Shown here: positions 943-42,093 of the stretch, in pieces
Position numbering within the stretch: the first letter of the stretch is position 1
Layout of the letters: every line of letters begins with the position of its first letter
NCBI GenBank assembly: GCA_000004695.1
Contig: CM000153.2
Location: 3,328,001-3,392,000 of the forward strand
Length of the DNA: 64,000 nucleotides
Source of the DNA: Dictyostelium discoideum
Lineage: Eukaryota
Direction of reading: 5' to 3'
Program-made: the position numbers and the translations under genes
Notes under the pieces: model-generated
What the model was told of the DNA's origin: nothing
What the model saw: the letters and a program-made list of their open reading frames with translations, nothing else
The model's database searches: none

Positions 943-1350
943 ATTAGTTTTTATTGCTTTTTTTTTTGCTTAAATCTATTATCTGTTATTTTATCTATTA
1001 TATTATCTATTAAATCCTATAGAAATAAAAAATTATAATTCCCTAAATGATGGAAGTGAGTGTGTTTGTATTATGTAAAAAATTTTAAAAATGAAATTTT
1101 TTTTTTTTTTTTTTTTTTTGACTTAATTTTTTAAAAAAAAATAAAAAAAAATAAAAAAAAATAAAAAATTAAAAATACTTTATTTATTTTTTTTATTTAA
1201 TTTATTATTATTATTATTGGTAATTACTTAAGAAAACTAATTCGTATTAATTGTTTTTAATTTTATTTTTATATCTAATTTAATATTTATTTTTTTTTTT
1301 TTTTATAAAAGCTCAGGTTTTTTAAAATTTTGGAAAATGAACAATCAAAC

Positions 1351-1381
<31 letters not shown>

Positions 1382-1708
1382 AGAGAATAAAAATTTTATA
1401 CCTACATATGTCGATATTATGATTCACATTTTTAACAAAAAAAAAAAAAAAATAAATTCAATTTCAAAATTTACTGTGCCCAGCTATCTGGCCGAAATAT
1501 CAAAAATTATTTTTTTTTTTTTTATTTTTTTTTTTATTTTTTTTTAATTTTTTTTTCTTTTTTTTTTTAAAAATTTTATGTGTTTTTTTTTTTTTTTTTT
1601 CTTTTTAAAAATTAAAACAAAAACAAAAACAAAAACGATAACAAATATAAAATTTTCAATCACAAACTAATCATACAATACATACTTTAAATAAAATATA
1701 GCATAAAA

Positions 1709-1817
1709 ATGTTTGGTCGTTTTATTAGACAATATTCTACATCAAAAAATATAATCAATGTAAATATATATATATGAACTTCAAAAAAAGTTATATTAAT
1801 TTAATTTTATTTGTTTT

Positions 1818-1849
<32 letters not shown>

Positions 1850-2998
1850 TTTTCTTTTTTATTTAATGTATATTTATTAATAATAAATAAAATAAAAAAT
1901 ATATATATATAGGTTAATGAATTAATTGTTGAAAAAACTAAAACACCATTTCAAAAATATACAGATAAAACTAAATTAGTATTTGGTAAACAATTTTCAG
2001 ATCATATGATTGAAGTACAATGGACAAAAGAGGAAGGTTGGGGAGTACCAAAGATTTCAGGATATCATAATTTATCAATTCCACCATCAGCATCAGTATT
2101 ACATTATGCATTGGAATGTTTTGAAGGTATGAAAGCCTATAAAGATAGTAATGGAAAGATTCGTTTATTTAGACCAGATCAAAATATGAATCGTTTCTTA
2201 AACTCTGCAAAGAGAATTTGTTTACCAGAGTTCAATAAGGAGGCAGTTATTGAGTTGATTAAAAAGTTATGTGTTTTGGATAAGGATTGGATTCCAGAGG
2301 GTAAGGGCTACTCTTTGTATTTACGTCCAACTTTAATTGCCACTCAAAATAGTTTAGGTGTTGGTGCATCCAATTCCGCCTTGATGTTTGTCATTGCCTC
2401 ACCAGTTGGTCCATACTATCCAGAGGGTTTCAAACCAGTGAAATTGATCGCCGACGATCAATATGTCAGAGCATGGGCTGGCGGTTCCGGTGCTTTCAAA
2501 TTGGGTTCAAATTACGCTCCAACCATTTTCCCACAATTGGAGGCTGCAAAGAAGGGTTTCTCTCAAGTACTTTGGTTATTAAATGACTATGTCACTGAAG
2601 TCGGTACTATGAATATGTTTGTCTTTTGGAATAACGCTCAAGGTGAGAAAGAATTGATCACTCCACCACTCGGTGATGGTACCATCCTTCCAGGTGTCAC
2701 TCGTGATAGTATCCTTAAATTAACTCAACAATGGGGTGAATTCAAAATCACTGAAAAGAATTTCACAATGACTGAATTAGCAAAAGCCATCAAAGAAGGT
2801 AGAGTATTTGAAGCTTTCGGTGCTGGTACTGCCGCCATCGTCTCTCCAATTGAATCAATCTCTTACAAAGGTGAAAATTATAGTATCCCAATTGATGCTT
2901 CTTTAAATTGTGGTCCATTAACAAAGAGAATTAGTGATTCAATCATGGCAATTCAATATGGTGAAACCAATTCTGATTGGTCTGTCATTGTTGATTAA
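1709..2998 (+). CDS. branched-chain amino acid aminotransferase (class IV, mitochondrial type); join(1709..1759,1913..2998)
   Basis: ORF 2006..2998 matches BCAT along its length (LVFGKQFSDHMIEV, ECFEGMKAY, LYLRPTLI, EVGTMNMFV, PPLGDGTILPGVTRDS, FGAGTAAIVSPI). The frame stays open upstream to an acceptor atatatatag|GTT at 1913. A 17-codon exon 1 (MFGRFIRQYSTSKNIIN, targeting-peptide-like) ends at a GTAAAT donor at 1760, and the two exons join in phase 0. Confidence 0.8.
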
Positions 2999-3062
2999 AA
3001 TTTTTTTTTTTTTTTTCTTTTTTTACTTTTCTAATAATAAAATAAAAAAAATAAAATTAAAA

Positions 3063-3093
<31 letters not shown>

Positions 3094-3169
3094 TAATAAT
3101 AAAAAATCCATGTATTTAAATTATTAATATAATATTTTATTTACAATTTTTATTTATTTATTTATTTAC

Positions 3170-4852
3170 TTAATTAATTACTGAAATATTTGTTAATGAT
3201 GTTGATTTTTTAATTATTGCTATTTTCTTTTTAACATTTTTTCTAATTAATGGATTTGGATTTTTATATTTTTTCCAAATAATTAATGAAGCAATAAATG
3301 TTGAAAATAGAACAATTGAATTAACTAAATAAGCGGCACCAGGGAAATAAATGGTATTGCCAGATGTAAATTCTCTATAGATATTTGATGCTGCTAAAGA
3401 TCCTAGGAAACCAGCTAAGGAACCGATGGCACGTGATCCAGTTAGAATTGAACCTTTAATTTCGGGTGGGGTTGCTCTTGAGATTACACTTTGAAGTAGG
3501 TATAGTATATTTGGTACAAATGCTGCTACGATACCACTACCAATCCATATCCATTGATTATATGCAAATCCATAAGAGACATGAGTTAATGCACCAACTA
3601 GAAATCCAACTGATATTAGTTTCCTTTCAGAGTAACGTTTCAAAAGTATTGGTATTAAAATTAAACTCCAAATTATCATTAAAATACCAACACCACCCAT
3701 GTAGAAACTGTTATAAGTGCCATCCCAATTATAAACCAATTCATTGTGATAGTAGTAGGTTGTGAATACGTCTTGTTCAGTATACGAGATTGAAGTGTAT
3801 AGAATAATGACGAATGCGACATACCCATTGGCACTGAAAATCAGTTTAATTAATTTGAAAGGATTTGACGAGGATTTAGTTTGACGGATTTTATGATTCT
3901 CTTTGGCAATTGTTAAACTCTCTTTTAGGAATGGAATTATGAATAGAGAACATGCAACCAAACCACATCCAATATAAAGTGATGACATTGAAAGATGGTC
4001 AAGTTGTTGTTGTGGAGTTTCATGAAATGTTGAAGCCACTGATATAACCGGACCAAGGACCACGCCCAAGCCCAACGAAACCCCTATCAATGAGTAGAGG
4101 TAGGGTACGGCATGTTCTTCGGAAATATCGGCAATGTAGGAGTACACCGCTGCCAATGCCACATTATAAGTGCCCGCAATACTATGCACAACATAATAAT
4201 AATAAAGATTATTGGTCCTAATGGTGACATAACAAGACACCATATCCAGTATAACCATAATAGTTCCATAGTAAAACATTAATTTTCTACCAAATTTATC
4301 GGACAAAACTCCACCCAACGCGCCGAAACAAAACATGGAAATGTATGGTATGGAATCTGAAAATGATTTATAATAGGTGGCTTTGGTTTGGATGTCTTTC
4401 TCATCTGGAAAATTGATTCTAACATAATTTAAAAATACATTTGGAATGAATAGAGAGTATATTAAACTACCCATAATCATAAATGTAAACATTAATAAAA
4501 CCAGTACTAAATCTTTCTTATATTTATGTTCCAAGAATGGAGCAATCGCTGATTTCTTTGGACCATTTCCAATTGGTAATTGATGTTCTTGTGCTCCATC
4601 AATATCATCTTCATTGATTTTTCCAAAATCTTGAACACTTTGACTAACATTAATTTTTGATGATACCAATAATGGACTAATATCTTTATCGTCAATATTG
4701 GCTAAATCTTCCAATAATCCAATTAAACTCTCTTTTCCAACTGATGATTCACTATCACTATATTCATTTACACTATAATCATGTGAACTTGGATTTGAAT
4801 AACTACCATTACCTTCATTAATTATTGAAGGATTATTATTTTCATATTCCAT
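3170..4852 (-). CDS. major facilitator superfamily (MFS) transporter, 560 aa
   Basis: Single 560-aa ORF with about 12 predicted hydrophobic helices. It carries the MFS signature G-x-L-x-D-x-x-G-R-K (GGVLSDKFGRKLMFYYG) and an acidic, Ser-rich N-terminus. Confidence 0.75.
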   Translation of the reverse strand: MEYENNNPSIINEGNGSYSNPSSHDYSVNEYSDSESSVGKESLIGLLEDLANIDDKDISPLLVSSKINVSQSVQDFGKINEDDIDGAQEHQLPIGNGPKKSAIAPFLEHKYKKDLVLVLLMFTFMIMGSLIYSLFIPNVFLNYVRINFPDEKDIQTKATYYKSFSDSIPYISMFCFGALGGVLSDKFGRKLMFYYGTIMVILDMVSCYVTIRTNNLYYYYVVHSIAGTYNVALAAVYSYIADISEEHAVPYLYSLIGVSLGLGVVLGPVISVASTFHETPQQQLDHLSMSSLYIGCGLVACSLFIIPFLKESLTIAKENHKIRQTKSSSNPFKLIKLIFSANGYVAFVIILYTSISYTEQDVFTTYYYHNELVYNWDGTYNSFYMGGVGILMIIWSLILIPILLKRYSERKLISVGFLVGALTHVSYGFAYNQWIWIGSGIVAAFVPNILYLLQSVISRATPPEIKGSILTGSRAIGSLAGFLGSLAASNIYREFTSGNTIYFPGAAYLVNSIVLFSTFIASLIIWKKYKNPNPLIRKNVKKKIAIIKKSTSLTNISVIN

Positions 4853-5229
4853 AAATTAATTTTACAAATTTTTTTTTCAAGTCAAGATTTTTTTTTTTTT
4901 TTGGATTTTTTTTTTTATTTTTTTATTTTTTTATTTTTTTATTATTATATTTATATTAAAAATAGATTTATTTATGAAAACATGTTATGAAAATAAATAA
5001 ATAAAAAAAATAATAAAAGTATTTAAAAAAAAAAAAATAATAATAATATTGATAAAAATGAAGGTGGTATTACAGATGGAACTTGTATGTGAAAATAAAA
5101 AAAAAAAAATAAAAAAATAAAAAAAATGAAAATATGAAAAAAAATTAAAATAAAAATTTAACACTGGTAAAATTTTTATTTTTTTTTGACACTGTCAGTG
5201 TGTCAGTTATTTTGACTTTTGGTTTTATT

Positions 5230-7209: not shown

Positions 7210-7963
7210 GCGCCAAATAGAGTTTAACAATAACTTTTTTTTTTTTTTTTTTTAAAAAAAATATTATTTTTATAATTGGATATTTAATAATAATATCTAT
7301 AGTTTTTTAAATTCTATATTCACTAAATATTTAAAAAAGGAATAATAAAATAATAACAAAAAAAAAAAAAAAAAAAATCCAAAACATTTTTTTTTTTTTT
7401 TTTTTTTATTTTTTTCATCATTTTTCATTTTATTTTTTTTCTTAGAAAAAAAAATTATTTCTTATAACTGTTTCAAATAAAACTAAATCAATTTTTTTAT
7501 TTTTTTATTTTATTTATTTTTTATTTATTCACTCATTTATTTATTATTTATATATTTATTTTTATGATTAAATCGGACTTAAATTTTATTTATCAAACCA
7601 CTATTAAATATAGATAATAAAAAAAATAATAATAAAAAATAAAAAGGATAATCTTTTTTTTTTTGTTTTTTTAGTAAACAAATATGTTTTTTTTTATTTA
7701 TTTTGTTTATTTGGAGATTAGTTTGGAATAAACAGTTATTAGTAGAAAAAAAAAAAATAAAAATAAAAATAAAAAAAATAAAAAAAAAAAAAAAATAAAA
7801 AATAAAATAAAATAAAAAAAAAAAAAAAAAATAAAAAAAACGAAAGAGCCAATTTTTTTTTTTTTTTTTTTTTCTTTTCTTTTCTCTACTTCCTTTTTTT
7901 TTTTTTTTTTTTAAATATTTGAAAAAAAGAGAGAAAAATTGAATTAAATAAATAAATAAAAAA

Positions 7964-9568: not shown

Positions 9569-10610
9569 ATAAATAAAAAAAAAAATATAAAAAAAAAATA
9601 AAAAAATAAAAAAATAAAAAGTAAAAATATAAAAAAATATTATTTGTAAATCTTGTCTTTTTTTATTATTATTATTATTTTTTTATATTGGTTAAAATAA
9701 AATTTTTAATTTTTTTGAATTTACTTGGTTTTTCAATTTTGTTTGCACAAGTAAAATATTTTTATTATTGTTTTAATTTTTTTTATTTTTTGTTGATATA
9801 TGATGAATATTATCTTCATAACTAGCGGTGTTAAAATGTTCAAATAACAATACCAACATATACATTTTCAAAAATAAAAAAAATTATAAATTTCAAAGGT
9901 AGTTACACCAAATATAAATAATAATAAAAATAATTTATTTACATAAACACACTAAAATTAGTGTTAAAATCAATAAAAAAAACAATAATAATGATAATAA
10001 TAATAAATTTCATACAAAATTTTGGTATTGTTATTTTCAATTAATGCAATAAAATATTTATTTTTATTTTTTTTTTTTTTATTTTTTTTTTTTTTTTGGG
10101 ATCAATAATAAAAAATAATCCTCAACAACCCCCATTTGCACAAAAACAGTCTTATTTTGGATTTTTTTTTTTTTTATTTTTTAATTTATTTATTTTCTAT
10201 TTTCTTTTTATTTTTATTTTTTTTTTTATTTTTTATTTTTTTTTATTTTTTTTATTTTTTATTTTTTTTTTTTTACTATATTAAAAAATTCAAATAAAAA
10301 AAAATCAAAAATAAAAATCTTTTTTTTTTTTCATTTTTTAATAATAAAATAAAATAGATTTTTTTCCACACTGTTGATTAATCACTTATTTTATATAAAA
10401 ATAAAAAAATAATAATATTTACTATTATTACTAATTGTATTGTTAAAGTGTTTTTTTTTTTATTATTATTAAAATAAATTTTCTTTTTTTTTTTTGTTCT
10501 GTTTTGTTTTTTTTACATATACAATAACTATAAAAAAAAATTTTTTTTTTTTTTTTTTTTTACTAAATTGGTAATTTTAGAAAGTATTAATAATTAATTT
10601 TTTATTTTTT

Positions 10611-37173: not shown

Positions 37174-37600
37174 TTTATAATTTAATAATTTATGATGGTG
37201 TTATCAATATATTGATATCAGTTACGACCCAAAACGAAAAATAAATTGTTTTTTTTTTAAATTTTTTCTTTTCTTTTTTTTTTTTTTTTTTTTTTTCAGA
37301 TATTTTTTTTTGGGATTTTAGAAAAAGCAAAATAAAAATAAAAAAAAAAATTAAAATAAAATTTAAATAAAAAATCTAAATTATCTAACCAGGGTGTTAT
37401 TTATTTTCAAGTCCGAAAAATTCTACTTTTTTAAAAAAAATAAAATAAAGAATAAATAAAAAAAGATAAAATTTTTTTTTTTTTTTTTTTTATGTTTAAG
37501 TTATCAAGTGCATCGATGGATGCATTGTGTGGGTGTTTTGGAAGTTTTAATTTTTAAGTTAATGTCTGGATTATTGGTTTCAATAAAAAATTGATTTTCA

Positions 37601-37672
37601 CCAAACAGGCTTTGACACAATGGTTGACTGTGGTTTTGATAGTGATCAATCCGATGTTACTTCAGAAATCGA
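37601..37672 (+). pseudogene. degenerate tRNA-Tyr-like fragment (5' half and intron-like part only)
   Basis: caggctttgacacaatggt...tgactgtggttttgatagtgatcaatccgatg aligns with the bona fide tRNA-Tyr at 38227 (ccggctttggcgcaatggtagcgcgattgactgtagtaaattaagtgatcaatcggttg), including the shared 5' flank caaac. It lacks the D-stem complement and the T-arm, so it cannot fold. Confidence 0.45.
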
Positions 37673-37752
37673 TTTTTTTTTTTTTAAATTGTATAACACA
37701 ATTAATGGTGCTTCTCCTTGAGATGCTAGAACTCATTTTATTTGTAATATTT
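37673..37752 (+). repeat. copy A of a duplicated segment: T-run followed by ~65-bp conserved block
   Basis: gaaatcga + T13 + aattgtataacacaattaatggtgcttctccttgagatgctagaactcattttatttgta. It is about 90% identical to 38094..38180. Read on the minus strand it is a conserved 3' end followed by poly(A), which suggests retroelement 3' ends. Confidence 0.6.
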
Positions 37753-37903
37753 TTTACAGGGTCTAAAAGAGGGTCAGTTTATTTTTTTATTTTTTTATTT
37801 ATTTTTTTTTTTTTTATTTTTTTATTGAAATTTTTTTTTTTTTTTTTATTTTGAAAATTTTCAAAAAAAAAAGAAAAAAATAATCAGACAGATAAAAACA
37901 ATC

Positions 37904-38067
37904 AACAACCTCTTTTTTTGATTATTTCATTTTTCATATAAAAAGACTTAAAAACAAACAAATAAATAAAGTATACTTATTTTAAAAAGCCATTTTTTGC
38001 TATTTATTTATTTGTTATTAAGTCTTTTTATATGAAAAATGAAATAATCAAAAAAAGAGGTTGTTGG
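37904..38067. repeat. near-perfect inverted repeat (two ~63-bp arms, ~33-bp spacer); foldback/MITE-like
   Basis: The left arm aacaacctctttttttgattatttcatttttcatataaaaagactta... is the reverse complement of the right arm ...taagtctttttatatgaaaaatgaaataatcaaaaaaagaggttgtt. There are 41 bp of perfect match plus about 20 bp with one small indel. Confidence 0.75.
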
Positions 38068-38093
38068 TTATTTTAATCTCAAAAAGAAATCGA

Positions 38094-38180
38094 AGGTTTT
38101 TTTTTTTTTTTTTTGAATTGGATAACGCAATTATTAGTTGCTTCTCCTTGAGATGCTAGATCTCATTTTATTTGTACTTT
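38094..38180 (+). repeat. copy B of the duplicated T-run + conserved block, ending 46 bp upstream of tRNA-Tyr
   Basis: gaaatcgaagg + T19 + gaattggataacgcaattattagttgcttctccttgagatgctagatctcattttatttgta. See copy A. Confidence 0.6.
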
Positions 38181-38226
38181 TTATAAATCGAAGGTTAACT
38201 GATAAAAAAAATAAAATTTCATCAAA

Positions 38227-38309
38227 CCGGCTTTGGCGCAATGGTAGCGCGATTGACTGTAGTAAATTAAGTGATCAATCGGTTGCTAGTTCGAATCTGG
38301 CAAGCCGGA
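38227..38309 (+). tRNA. tRNA-Tyr (anticodon GTA) with 11-nt intron
   Basis: Manual fold: acceptor stem CCGGCTT/AAGCCGG (7 bp perfect), D-arm GCGC-AATGGTA-GCGC, anticodon stem ATTGA/TCAAT, loop C-T-GTA-G + intron TAAATTAAGTG + A, variable loop CGGTT, T-arm GCTAG-TTCGAAT-CTGGC, discriminator A. A TTTTT Pol III terminator follows immediately. Eukaryotic tRNA-Tyr genes characteristically carry an intron 3' of position 37. Confidence 0.85.
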
Positions 38310-38310
38310 C

Positions 38311-38315
38311 TTTTT
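38311..38315 (+). terminator. RNA polymerase III terminator (T5) for tRNA-Tyr
   Basis: A run of five T starts 2 nt after the tRNA discriminator base. Confidence 0.6.
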
Positions 38316-38329
38316 CCAACCACCAATTA

Positions 38330-39470
38330 TAAGACGCATGTTCGACTCCGTATTTAATCAATTATTAAAGCTCATCAATAATAATTGATTAAATAATTAT
38401 TAAAGCTCATCAATAATAACATAACACAGGCAAAGGGATAACAAGAAAAATGCCAGAATTATTAAACACAATAAGATCATCCTTAGTACTATGGAAAACC
38501 ACTGACTCAACAATCAAAACCAAAACCAACATCCTCAAAGCATTCGCACTCTCTAAATTAACCTACTATTCATATGTAGAGAACTTTAAGGAAGAGGAAT
38601 TAAACCAAATCAATAAATTAGTCGAATGGTTTTTATCGGCACCAAACAACAAAAATGCTAGTGGATTTCAAGTTATTAATTTAATGAGAACCAAAAGAGC
38701 AAGATACCCACTAAAAGTAGGGGGCTGGAACATTTGGAATATAGAATTGAGACAACTGGCGCAGAAACTTTGGATCATAAACCAGTTCATCCTAGCACTA
38801 GAAACCAAACAAACAAACTCATCTCATCACAAAAGCTGGGAATATCAGATCCAAAAAAACAAATTCACATCCAGATACCTAAAAGAAAACTTAGACGAAT
38901 GGAACAAAATAAGAATAAAAAAAGCAATCTTCAACAATAATCTCACATCCATAAAAAACGAAAATGGACAACCACTTTCACTGGCAGAATGGTATACCAC
39001 AATTCAAGACCAAAATCCAACCATCCCTAAAACGGAATTCCAATCATCTCTAAACTTAATTCATTGTACCACTGTGCAATCAAATATACAGTGAAGATCC
39101 TTTAACAAATGAATCACTATCATACAGCTCCCTTCTAAAGAAATGGCACAAATTGGCCACTCTAGAATACATCAAAAAAGCAAAAGATCTGAAAAACTTA
39201 TCAGCAAAAGACCATAATAATTTCAAAGATCCTAAGATCCTTCTCACCTCAACGATCAAGCTAAGAAAAACAACAGCTAATTACTATTGTATTCCAGAAT
39301 CATCTCTCCCAAATATTATATCTTTTGATCAATTCATATGATTAAAATAACCCTTCAGCTTAAATGATAAGCCTATAAATAAATATTAAATAAAAACTCG
39401 TATTAACACAGATGGACATATATCAATCTTGTTAATCCAATATTAAAAAAAAAAAAAAAAAAAAAAAAAC
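38330..39470 (+). mobile_element. 5'-truncated non-LTR (poly(A)) retrotransposon fragment downstream of a tRNA gene (TRE3-like): C-terminal ORF2 remnant + 3' UTR + A22 tail
   Basis: ORF 38450..39094 (214 aa) has normal amino-acid composition and moderate G+C, unlike the host's AT-rich coding bias. A further 3' region follows, then a poly(A) tract at 39446..39469. It begins about 100-140 bp downstream of the tRNA-Tyr 3' end. Dictyostelium TRE3-type elements characteristically sit about 100 bp downstream of tRNA genes. A short internal direct repeat (ttattaaagctcatcaataataa, x2) lies at 38367..38425. Confidence 0.55.
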
Positions 39471-39615
39471 TTTTTAAAATCCATATATAAACCTTTCGGC
39501 TAAATAAAAAAAGAATCAGTGAGTGTTATGGAAAAGAATAAGAAAAAATATGAAAAAAATATGAAAAAACTCAAAAAAAAAATTTTTTTTTTTTTTTTTT
39601 CAATTTTTTAATTTA

Positions 39616-42093
39616 ATGATGAATTCTGATCAAAAGTTAGATATAAATATATTATTTTGGAAGGTAATAAAAAATAAAGTTTTGTTCAAAAAAATATTGA
39701 AATATTTATCCTATGAATATAATGATGATGATATATCAAAACCATTATTTTCAGTACAGTGGTTAATAAATAATGGATACAGGAAAACTTTAAAACATAA
39801 AATAATGAATGATCATTACTTAGAATTTGATAAAAATTACTCTTCAAATGCCTTTGAAAATTACTCGTCAAATGTCTTTGAAAATTTTTTTTTATTCTTT
39901 AAAGATGAAACAGATGAAGAATTTTATAAAAATTTATTTTCAAGAAATTATTTTAAATCAATATTTCAATCTAAAAATATAACCAATATTAATAATAATA
40001 ATAATAATAAAAATTTTAATAATTTTTTTGAATCAATAATTAAAACAATTTTTGAAACGAATAATTTTATTGCAATAAAAGTATTAAATGAAGAATATTA
40101 TTATTTAACTTGTAAAGTAAAGTTTGGAATTTTAGATAATTATGAAATTTTAAATTGGTTATTGAAAACCTATGGAAAAACATATATTTTAGAGTATATA
40201 AAAAACAATATTAATAATGATATTGAAGAACCTTTACAAGTTTTTATAAATTCAATCTCTTCAAATATATATTTAGCAAACCCAAAATCATCAGAGAGTT
40301 TAGAATCAATAATTGATTTATTTAAATTATTAACAGAGGATTTGAACATTGAAATACCAAATTGCAGTAAGCAAAGGATTCTTTCAATTATTTTACAAAT
40401 TTGTCCAATCAATAATAATTATGCCATTAGACTTATTTTAAAATTATTTAAATTTATTAGAATGTTTCGTGATTCCAAACCATTTAATAAACAACTTTCA
40501 ATTATTGAATCAATTGAATTTTCAAAAGAACAGTTGGATATGAGACTTTTGGATTTTATACATAATGATCAAAAGCAAAAGCAAATGTTTAAAACATTAA
40601 TTAAAAGTTACTATGAAAATGTTTTTTCAAATGGATTTAGTTTTTTATATTATTACATTTATGAAAGTATTGAATTATTTAAATCAAGTCAAATTATAAA
40701 TAATAATCATTCAATAAATCCGAAATATTATACATTCACTTCATTCGAGTATGGAGATATTGAATTATTTAAATTCACTTTTAATTCTCTTTCAATTGAT
40801 GATCGTAATTATTTAATGAATGGTACACAACAATTACTTCTTAATGGTAAAATAATATTTTTTAAATATTCCAATGATAAATCAATGAATGAAAAAATGA
40901 AATTTATTAATCAAGTAACTATGGAAATTAATAATTCAAAAAGCAAACGTAGTTTTTTAGAAAAAACTGATAAAATTGAATTTTTAATTTATTTATTTAC
41001 ATATTTAATAAAAATAAATGAAATTGAATTATTAAATGTAATTATTAAAGATTGTAATTTCAATCCATACTCAAAATCATTTAAAGTATCCAAATCAGAT
41101 TATTTATACATTTGTAGATATATTAAATCAATATCAATGTTAGATTTTATTTATTTCAATTTTAAAGATATGGATAATTTAATTTGGGATTGTAAATCTT
41201 GGTGTAATGATAATAGATTCGATTTGATTGAACATTATTTAAATTTAAATTCAAAACATGTTTCTGGAGTCACCATGGTCAATTATGATATAAAAAATGA
41301 AACCAACCTTAAATTAAATAATAAATTAAATTCAATTTCAATAGAAATTAAAAACACAAATGATAATATTGGGTCAATGAAATATTTTATTGGAAAATAT
41401 AAAAATCAAAATTATAAATTATTATCATCACTACCAAAATTTAAAATTTATTTTCATTTTGATAAAAATGTTAATAGTACTATTTTTGATAATATAAATA
41501 ATTATAAATTTATAATTGAAAACAGTTTAAACTACAATTGTCGTCAATCATCTAAAAATGAAAATCAAGAAGCAAAAGAAGAAGAGGAAGAATTCTTAGA
41601 TCATGATCTATTTGATGATAATAGTGTTGATAATGATAATTTAGTTACAAACTATTGTTTTAAATGGAGTGGATTTATTCCATACCAATATGTTGAATTT
41701 ATAAAATGGATTTTAGAAAGTCGTCAAAATGATTTGAAATCAGGTCGTTTAATTATTTCAAGTCATCAATTAATTTCATTTAAATATTTAATTTATTTAC
41801 AAAGTAATGGTATTAAATATTTAAATGAAATTGATTCATTCATTTCTTCAACAACATCAAGTTCAGTAGAAAATTATTTATTTTTTTGTGCTTTTAATCA
41901 TTGTGATTTAAAAACAATAGATAAAATTATTAATAATTTAAAAAATTCAAATTTAGATATTCTCTCTTCATTATTTAATTACTCAACAATGTGTGGTCAA
42001 ATTAAAGTACTTAAACATTTATATAAAAATCATAAATTTCTTTTTGAAACATTTTCTTCAAAAAATTTCTTAAAACAATATAATTTGGAATAA
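39616..42093 (+). CDS. hypothetical protein, 825 aa, Asn/Ile/Lys-rich, no recognisable domain
   Basis: Long uninterrupted ORF with Dictyostelium-like codon and amino-acid bias and internal tandem copies (SSNAFENYSSNVFENF). I could assign no conserved motif. Confidence 0.55.
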   Translation: MMNSDQKLDINILFWKVIKNKVLFKKILKYLSYEYNDDDISKPLFSVQWLINNGYRKTLKHKIMNDHYLEFDKNYSSNAFENYSSNVFENFFLFFKDETDEEFYKNLFSRNYFKSIFQSKNITNINNNNNNKNFNNFFESIIKTIFETNNFIAIKVLNEEYYYLTCKVKFGILDNYEILNWLLKTYGKTYILEYIKNNINNDIEEPLQVFINSISSNIYLANPKSSESLESIIDLFKLLTEDLNIEIPNCSKQRILSIILQICPINNNYAIRLILKLFKFIRMFRDSKPFNKQLSIIESIEFSKEQLDMRLLDFIHNDQKQKQMFKTLIKSYYENVFSNGFSFLYYYIYESIELFKSSQIINNNHSINPKYYTFTSFEYGDIELFKFTFNSLSIDDRNYLMNGTQQLLLNGKIIFFKYSNDKSMNEKMKFINQVTMEINNSKSKRSFLEKTDKIEFLIYLFTYLIKINEIELLNVIIKDCNFNPYSKSFKVSKSDYLYICRYIKSISMLDFIYFNFKDMDNLIWDCKSWCNDNRFDLIEHYLNLNSKHVSGVTMVNYDIKNETNLKLNNKLNSISIEIKNTNDNIGSMKYFIGKYKNQNYKLLSSLPKFKIYFHFDKNVNSTIFDNINNYKFIIENSLNYNCRQSSKNENQEAKEEEEEFLDHDLFDDNSVDNDNLVTNYCFKWSGFIPYQYVEFIKWILESRQNDLKSGRLIISSHQLISFKYLIYLQSNGIKYLNEIDSFISSTTSSSVENYLFFCAFNHCDLKTIDKIINNLKNSNLDILSSLFNYSTMCGQIKVLKHLYKNHKFLFETFSSKNFLKQYNLE

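Follow-up and report, generated by a model that had tools for sequence, protein, structure and literature searches.

A 5'-truncated and internally deleted TRE3 retrotransposon, most probably TRE3-A, behind an intron-containing tRNA-Tyr(GUA) gene of Dictyostelium discoideum

TRE3-A, formerly named Tdd-3, is a tRNA-gene-targeted retrotransposon of Dictyostelium discoideum that belongs to the non-long terminal repeat (non-LTR), long interspersed nuclear element (LINE)-like class. TRE3 elements are found ∼40-150 bp downstream of tRNA genes, with a range of 14-228 bp for TRE3-A (PMC5911963, PMC5006619), and in the same transcriptional orientation as the tRNA gene (PMC5911963). TRE3-B, TRE3-C and TRE3-D are alike in element class, target region and orientation (PMC5006619). 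TRE5-A (DRE) is also a LINE-like TRE, with the same order of domains in its open reading frame 2 (ORF2) and with RNA polymerase III (Pol III) transcription complexes as landmarks, whereas TRE5 elements insert ∼44-54 bp upstream of tRNA genes and in the opposite orientation (PMC5911963). Skipper-2, a Dictyostelium LTR retrotransposon, likewise occurs downstream of tRNA genes (PMC5911963), but is a chromovirus with integrase and has no poly(A) tail. Here, we analyzed a stretch of 64,000 nt of the D. discoideum genome (assembly GCA_000004695.1, contig CM000153.2, positions 3,328,001 to 3,392,000 of the forward strand; hereafter the window, numbered from its first base). Our results leave little doubt that the segment located at 38425-39469 on the plus strand is an inert TRE3 copy, 5'-truncated, internally deleted and poly(A)-tailed, most probably of the TRE3-A subfamily and lying behind a tRNA-Tyr(GUA) gene. 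Its LINE-type ORF2 homology and A25 tail differ from Skipper-2, while its downstream and co-oriented position differs from that of TRE5-A.

The element is composed of two coding blocks, an untranslated region and a tail, all of them on the plus strand. The first block (38425-39059) is a part of ORF2 that lies past the reverse-transcriptase core (∼3739-4373 in the coordinates of the rebuilt element of 5227 bp described below); in blastn comparisons with the D. discoideum copy L006 it starts abruptly at 38425, shows 630/635 identities and breaks at 39059. Similarity resumes at 39075 and runs into the tail, with 388/393 identities to L006 and 100% identity to the D. discoideum copy L001. This second block (39075-39341) contains the C-terminal 89 codons of ORF2, including the stop codon TGA at 39339-39341, and is followed by the 3' untranslated region (39342-39444, aligned by blastn to L001, L004 and L006) and by a poly(A) tail of 25 residues by run count (39445-39469). 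In tblastn searches, proteins of the ORF2 family, among them P0125 and P0142, matched 38425-39058 and 39072-39338 with E-values of 1e-108 to 1e-128 and 96-100% identity, and gave no further match anywhere else in the 64-kb window. Relative to intact copies, 485 bp are absent between 39059 and 39075, and comparison with the intact P0006/L001 sequence revealed in their place 15 unrelated bases (ttcattgtaccactg, 39060-39074, plus strand), a filler for which no match longer than 7 nt was found within the element. The deletion takes out ∼161 codons, including the CCHC zinc knuckle CPLCKEDMSKDPYGHLFFSC, and shifts the reading frame, which is why the ORF annotated at this site ends at 39094. The remaining 1045 bp represent about the last 1.5 kb of a full element minus the internal deletion, and cover residues ∼799-1010 and 1172-1260 of the ORF2 protein P0142. 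Endonuclease, reverse-transcriptase core and zinc knuckle are all missing, leaving no catalytic domain, and the copy is therefore immobile. The element is 99-100% identical to other genomic copies, which we count as a sign of youth, and the region 37800-39700 is 99.95% identical to its counterpart in a second D. discoideum assembly (L005).

The element starts 115 bp past the 3' end of the tRNA-Tyr gene (38309 to 38425), on the same strand, and is preceded by an external B box (ex-B; GTTCGACTCC, 38340-38349, plus strand) whose first base lies 85 bp ahead of it. A motif scan located this box in the host flank, 51 bp after the internal B box of the gene (GTTCGAATCT, 38289-38298, plus strand), and it is conserved in the element-free allele L007. 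Boxes of this kind have been described (PMC5911963), and ex-B at 38340-38349 is the probable TFIIIC site used for targeting. The arrangement recurs throughout the family: of eight independent copies, sampled in three species, seven have a co-oriented tRNA gene 53-122 bp upstream. Besides the window, these comprise the D. discoideum loci L001, behind tRNA-Leu(UAA) at 55 bp from the tRNA 3' end, L006, behind a second tRNA-Tyr gene at 100 bp, L008, behind tRNA-Leu(CAA) at ∼90 bp, and L009, behind an intron-containing tRNA at 83 bp, together with L002 of D. cf. discoideum, behind tRNA-Lys(UUU) at 53 bp, and L004 of D. citrinum, behind tRNA-Gly(GCC) at 122 bp. At each tRNA gene of the family loci, an external B box occurs 48-57 bp after the internal one. 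A fixed ruler counted from the B box was also considered: five copies start 73-86 bp after the box, but L008 starts at ∼56 bp and L009 at 53 or 105 bp, and we do not claim a precise ruler. Both L008 and L009 contain tandem arrays, as described in the literature. In addition, L006 holds at 9943-9984, just downstream of a near-full-length copy, a miniature TRE3 insertion that retains only 17 nt of the 3' terminus ahead of an A25 tail and has the 9-bp target-site duplication ttctgggta on either side.

Much of this had been anticipated by an earlier note drawn from the letters of the window. The 5'-truncated ORF2 remnant that it described was recovered by tblastn and blastn, its less AT-rich composition agrees with a G+C content of 31.6% in 38001-39000 versus ∼20% nearby, and its proposal of a TRE3-type insertion close to the 3' side of a tRNA gene is upheld by the distance, the common orientation and the similar placement of the other family loci. 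The poly(A) tail exists, though as A25 and not as A22 at 39446-39469. The element does lie on the predicted side of the tRNA gene, but begins later than had been supposed, with 38310-38424 being host flank outside the element. The internal 485-bp deletion was a feature that the note had missed.

In order to assign the family, we rebuilt a full-length element from L008, the tandem array behind tRNA-Leu(CAA), and from L006, where the 5' end was set by the 9-10-bp duplication (A)CTTGCTGCT. The rebuilt element is 5227 bp long without tail and contains a 167-nt leader, an ORF1 of 417 codons (nt 168-1418) and an ORF2 consisting of an open frame of 1261 codons (nt 1340-5122), placed in the -1 frame relative to ORF1 with a 79-nt overlap and bearing a weak endonuclease match, RVT_1 and a zinc knuckle. 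Among longer D. discoideum relatives, P0007, P0008, P0125 and P0142 hold the window sequence downstream of RVT_1 (68-116 bits). P0142 additionally shows a weak Exo_endo_phos match and a knuckle of the form CX2C...H...C. In full-length relatives the Exo_endo_phos match is weak (18-23 bits, below the Pfam cut-off) and the knuckle reads CPLC...H...C. Poly(A) tails of A19-A33 are present on other copies of the family. Published consensus lengths are 5229 bp for TRE3-A, 5279 bp for TRE3-B, 4734 bp for TRE3-C and a partial 1559 bp for TRE3-D (Table 1, PMC5006619), and a -1 frameshift has been reported for TRE3-A (PMC5911963). The family also accounts for at least 15 fragmentary DDB_G entries of strain AX4 that bear the names 'hypothetical protein' or 'reverse transcriptase domain-containing' (for example, DDB_G0285835, DDB_G0274837, DDB_G0285795, DDB_G0276525 and DDB_G0277715); no other family has as many annotated remnants, which fits TRE3-A as the most abundant TRE3. 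Taking into account the closeness of 5227 to 5229 bp, the -1 frame and this abundance, the family is most probably TRE3-A, a name that derives from length, frame structure and abundance rather than from a consensus alignment. Like TRE3-A, the window copy ends in a poly(A) tail, its full-length relatives encode endonuclease, reverse transcriptase and zinc knuckle in ORF2, and it stands co-oriented downstream of a tRNA gene and behind an external B box. It departs from TRE3-A in retaining the last ∼1 kb only, with an internal deletion and no target-site duplication, and the likeness is one of structure, not of consensus identity.

The site without the element could be observed at L007, the orthologous locus of another isolate labelled D. 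discoideum, which was reached via the adjoining 825-aa ORF in an assembly set that includes diverged tropical isolates. L007 has the same neighbouring genes, tRNA-Tyr, terminator and external B box, but no element. There, the homologous sequence 'ctttttaaaatccata...' follows after 62 bp versus 1111 bp in the window, and within this short interval lie an A19 tract and 16 bp (tattccttttaactta) that are missing from the window. Since a diverged wild isolate is devoid of the element at the orthologous site, the window element is a real and fairly recent insertion.

Several observations weigh against the reading of a tRNA-targeted TRE3-A insertion. The flanks of L007 are only 82-91% identical to those of the window and hold the A19 tract and the 16 bp at the site itself, so that the exact pre-insertion sequence is not reconstructable, and the L007 isolate could formally have lost the element secondarily instead of never having carried it. 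The copy at L003 lacks a nearby tRNA gene, even in a permissive Rfam scan. The assignment to TRE3-A draws on element length, the frameshift and copy abundance, not on sequence identity to the deposited references of TRE3-A, -B, -C or -D. Finally, the check for a flanking target-site duplication, which the earlier note had proposed, found none at the window copy (no k-mer of at least 8 nt common to both flanks), while other copies display duplications of 9-15 bp, such as those of L006 and L009, the latter being (A)TTATTGTATATTCC. A target-site duplication usually accompanies target-primed reverse transcription, but does not define a TRE3 element. A 7-nt match, ACTTTTT, that follows both the tRNA and the tail was put down to chance and not taken for such a duplication, since it constitutes the Pol III terminator, with ex-B and flank being host sequence conserved in L007. 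The 5' junction is abutted by a 35-bp tandem duplication of the host flank (38360-38419, plus strand; sequence and blastn), in which aattattaaagctcatcaataataa appears twice (38360-38384 and 38395-38419); it lies outside the element and differs from L007. The duplication has the spacer ttgattaaat, whose reverse complement, atttaatcaa, occurs just upstream.

In the simplest reading of these junctions, reverse transcription was primed at the A/T tract, a small piece of the target was lost and the 5' end was joined untidily. Owing to the missing duplication and to the A19 tract and 16 extra bp of the element-free allele, an atypical integration also deserves attention, either as endonuclease-independent capture at an A/T-tract break or as T-run-primed reverse transcription with a small target-site deletion; we consider it unlikely, although far from negligible. 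A more radical view would deny targeted insertion altogether and ascribe the neighbourhood of retroelement fragment and tRNA gene to chance or to a segmental rearrangement. Such a view could appeal to the same missing duplication, to the tandem repeat and the filler-bearing deletion as marks of a rearranged copy or junction, and to an upstream region whose pseudo-tRNA and palindrome make its rearrangement clear. It is nonetheless very improbable, given that the same distance window and orientation recur next to different tRNA genes in all but one of the independent copies, that the 3' junction bears a clean poly(A) tail and that the flanks are contiguous in the other isolate.

Targeted insertion of a TRE3 element being retained, its assignment to a subfamily other than TRE3-A has a small residual probability. 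The call was made from structural features, position and orientation are common to all TRE3 subfamilies, and several related families coexist in the genome, as revealed by a second ORF2 family of ∼41-48% identity (P0010, P0014 and P0016) that is probably one of TRE3-B, TRE3-C or TRE3-D. However, the published lengths of these three misfit the rebuilt element, which is far closer to TRE3-A, and the number of DDB_G remnants is in line with TRE3-A abundance. A different question is posed by the ORF at 38450-39094 (ATG, 214 codons), which is 98% identical to DDB_G0285547 of AX4 and 100% identical to ACTFIT_005812 of the second D. discoideum assembly. A true host gene, encoding a domesticated retrotransposon-derived protein, might be invoked here, inasmuch as the frame is annotated as protein-coding in two assemblies and is still open from its ATG, but it seems scarcely credible. 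The ATG codes for a methionine inside ORF2 (...GKGITRKMPEILN...), the frame is terminated by the internal deletion and frameshift, the product has no Pfam domain, and the entire block is missing in the L007 isolate; moreover, DNA that is 99-100% identical to many copies gives no sign of separate evolution. DDB_G0285547 is a leftover TRE3 reading frame.

The identity of the element, its boundaries, deletion, position and orientation, the family-wide association with tRNA genes and the absence from another isolate are all demonstrated, whereas guidance by TFIIIC and the B box, as well as the steps of reverse transcription, are inferred from the knowledge of L1-like and TRE elements. According to that model, an active TRE3 would have supplied the ORF1 protein together with the ORF2 protein, containing endonuclease, reverse transcriptase and zinc knuckle. 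The complex would have been guided downstream of a B box bound by the Pol III factor TFIIIC, here presumably ex-B at 38340, although the targeting factor of TRE3 is, according to the literature, experimentally not established. The ORF2 endonuclease would then nick the DNA, after which target-primed reverse transcription would copy the element RNA, starting from its poly(A) end, directly onto the nick, and a premature stop of copying probably accounts for the 5' truncation inside ORF2.

The gene that precedes the element is a genuine and functional-looking tRNA-Tyr(GUA) gene. It occupies 38227-38309 on the plus strand according to ARAGORN, Rfam RF00005 and direct reading. ARAGORN made a single tRNA call in the whole 64-kb window, at 38227-38310, and RF00005 matched 38227-38309 with 57.8 bits (E=2.7e-11; gathering score 29) and an additional insert in the anticodon loop. 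Exon 1 extends over 38227-38262, with the anticodon GTA at 38259-38261 and G37 at 38262, the intron over 38263-38273 and exon 2 over 38274-38309. The reading includes the acceptor stem CCGGCTT/AAGCCGG, the D arm GCGC-AATGGTA-GCGC, the anticodon stem ATTGA/TCAAT, and an anticodon loop CT-GTA-G interrupted by the 11-nt intron taaattaagtg before A38, as well as the T arm GCTAG-TTCGAAT-CTGGC and the discriminator A at 38309. A T5 run at 38311-38315 (plus strand, sequence read) forms the Pol III terminator, which in L007 is T4. The canonical site of eukaryotic tRNA introns is 37/38, C1-G72 and A73 together form the tyrosine identity set of eukaryotes, and other eukaryotic tRNA-Tyr genes have the same loop context, CTGTAG|intron|ATC. 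The gene displays its intron at this site, C1-G72 and A73, internal A and B boxes and the oligo(T) terminator, and the Tyr(GUA) reading is correct because of the intron site, the identity set and the loop context. An Asn(GTT) parse with an intron of equal size at the non-canonical 34/35 position, returned by the intron mode of ARAGORN, was rejected in view of C1-G72, A73 and the CTGTAG-intron-A loop.

The exons are identical across the window, the L007 allele and the L006 paralogue, and only the 11 nt vary, from taaattaagtg in the window to tcattaaagtg in L007 (5478-5488) and taattaaagtg in L006 (5687-5697), which is the behaviour expected of an intron. The intron 3' of position 37 and the T5 terminator had both been recognized in the earlier note, and they stand. 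The 23 bp directly upstream of the gene (aaaaaaaataaaatttcatcaaa, 38204-38226) are identical to those preceding the unrelated tRNA-Leu(UAA) gene of L001 (7849-7871), and leaders such as '...tttcatcaa' or '...atcatcaaa' also precede the tRNA-Tyr genes of L006 and L007. This shared leader may represent a conserved Pol III upstream or start-site motif.

The supposition that the window has no mobile DNA apart from the block behind the tRNA gene is refuted by remnants of TRE5 type upstream of the same gene. Comparison of the sequence with copies elsewhere identified at 38099-38184, on the minus strand and 42 bp upstream of tRNA-Tyr, a separate 86-bp piece from the 3' end of a poly(A) retroelement, in the opposite orientation. 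The fragment, with its T-run on the plus strand, sits between the two copies of a 12-bp target-site duplication, aaatcgaaggtt (38087-38098 and 38185-38196), and L007 is empty at this site and contains one copy of the duplicated sequence. Position and orientation correspond to the TRE5-type geometry. A degenerate, 3'-truncated tRNA-Tyr pseudogene at 37603-37665, which includes leader and intron and was not called by ARAGORN or Rfam, is followed by T13 and by a longer second copy of the minus-strand unit (∼135 bp, 37673-37807). Both units are probably the 3' C-module of TRE5-A. The left flank 'agaaatcga' is common to the two, and this suggests a local duplication rather than independent insertions. 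Between 37860 and 38117 lies an imperfect palindrome (78% over 271 bp when aligned with its reverse complement), and its arms are similar to the 5' terminus of a short element found on the minus strand in L001 (∼7400-7740) and L002. L007 has neither the pseudogene nor the second unit nor the palindrome, and lacks 37492-38085 as a whole. The tRNA-Tyr locus has hence received insertions on either side, of TRE5 type upstream and of TRE3 downstream, and ∼13% of D. discoideum tRNA genes have been reported with both TRE3 and TRE5.

On the other side of the element, the adjoining 825-aa ORF (39616-42093) starts 147 bp past the tail, as against the ∼150 bp estimated previously. Its only detectable homologue is the L007 counterpart, with 93% identity. 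Together with the 82-91% identity of the intergenic flanks, this single homologue would indicate, as judged from sequence comparison, either a fast-evolving gene or a deeply diverged isolate.

These findings belong to known biology and add at most one new example of an already catalogued kind of insertion, so that their significance is mostly one of annotation housekeeping. DDB_G0285547, annotated as 'hypothetical protein', should drop out of host gene counts, and the ∼15 similar AX4 entries are probably not to be counted as host genes either. On the other hand, the insertions at the tRNA-Tyr locus differ between D. discoideum isolates and could serve as lineage markers. If the atypical integration considered above were true, the presence of the element in the NC4/AX lineage and its absence in a wild isolate would imply that TRE3-A has been active recently enough to generate polymorphism within the species. 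Overall, the locus is a textbook case of tRNA genes serving Dictyostelium retrotransposons as safe places to insert in a genome densely packed with genes.

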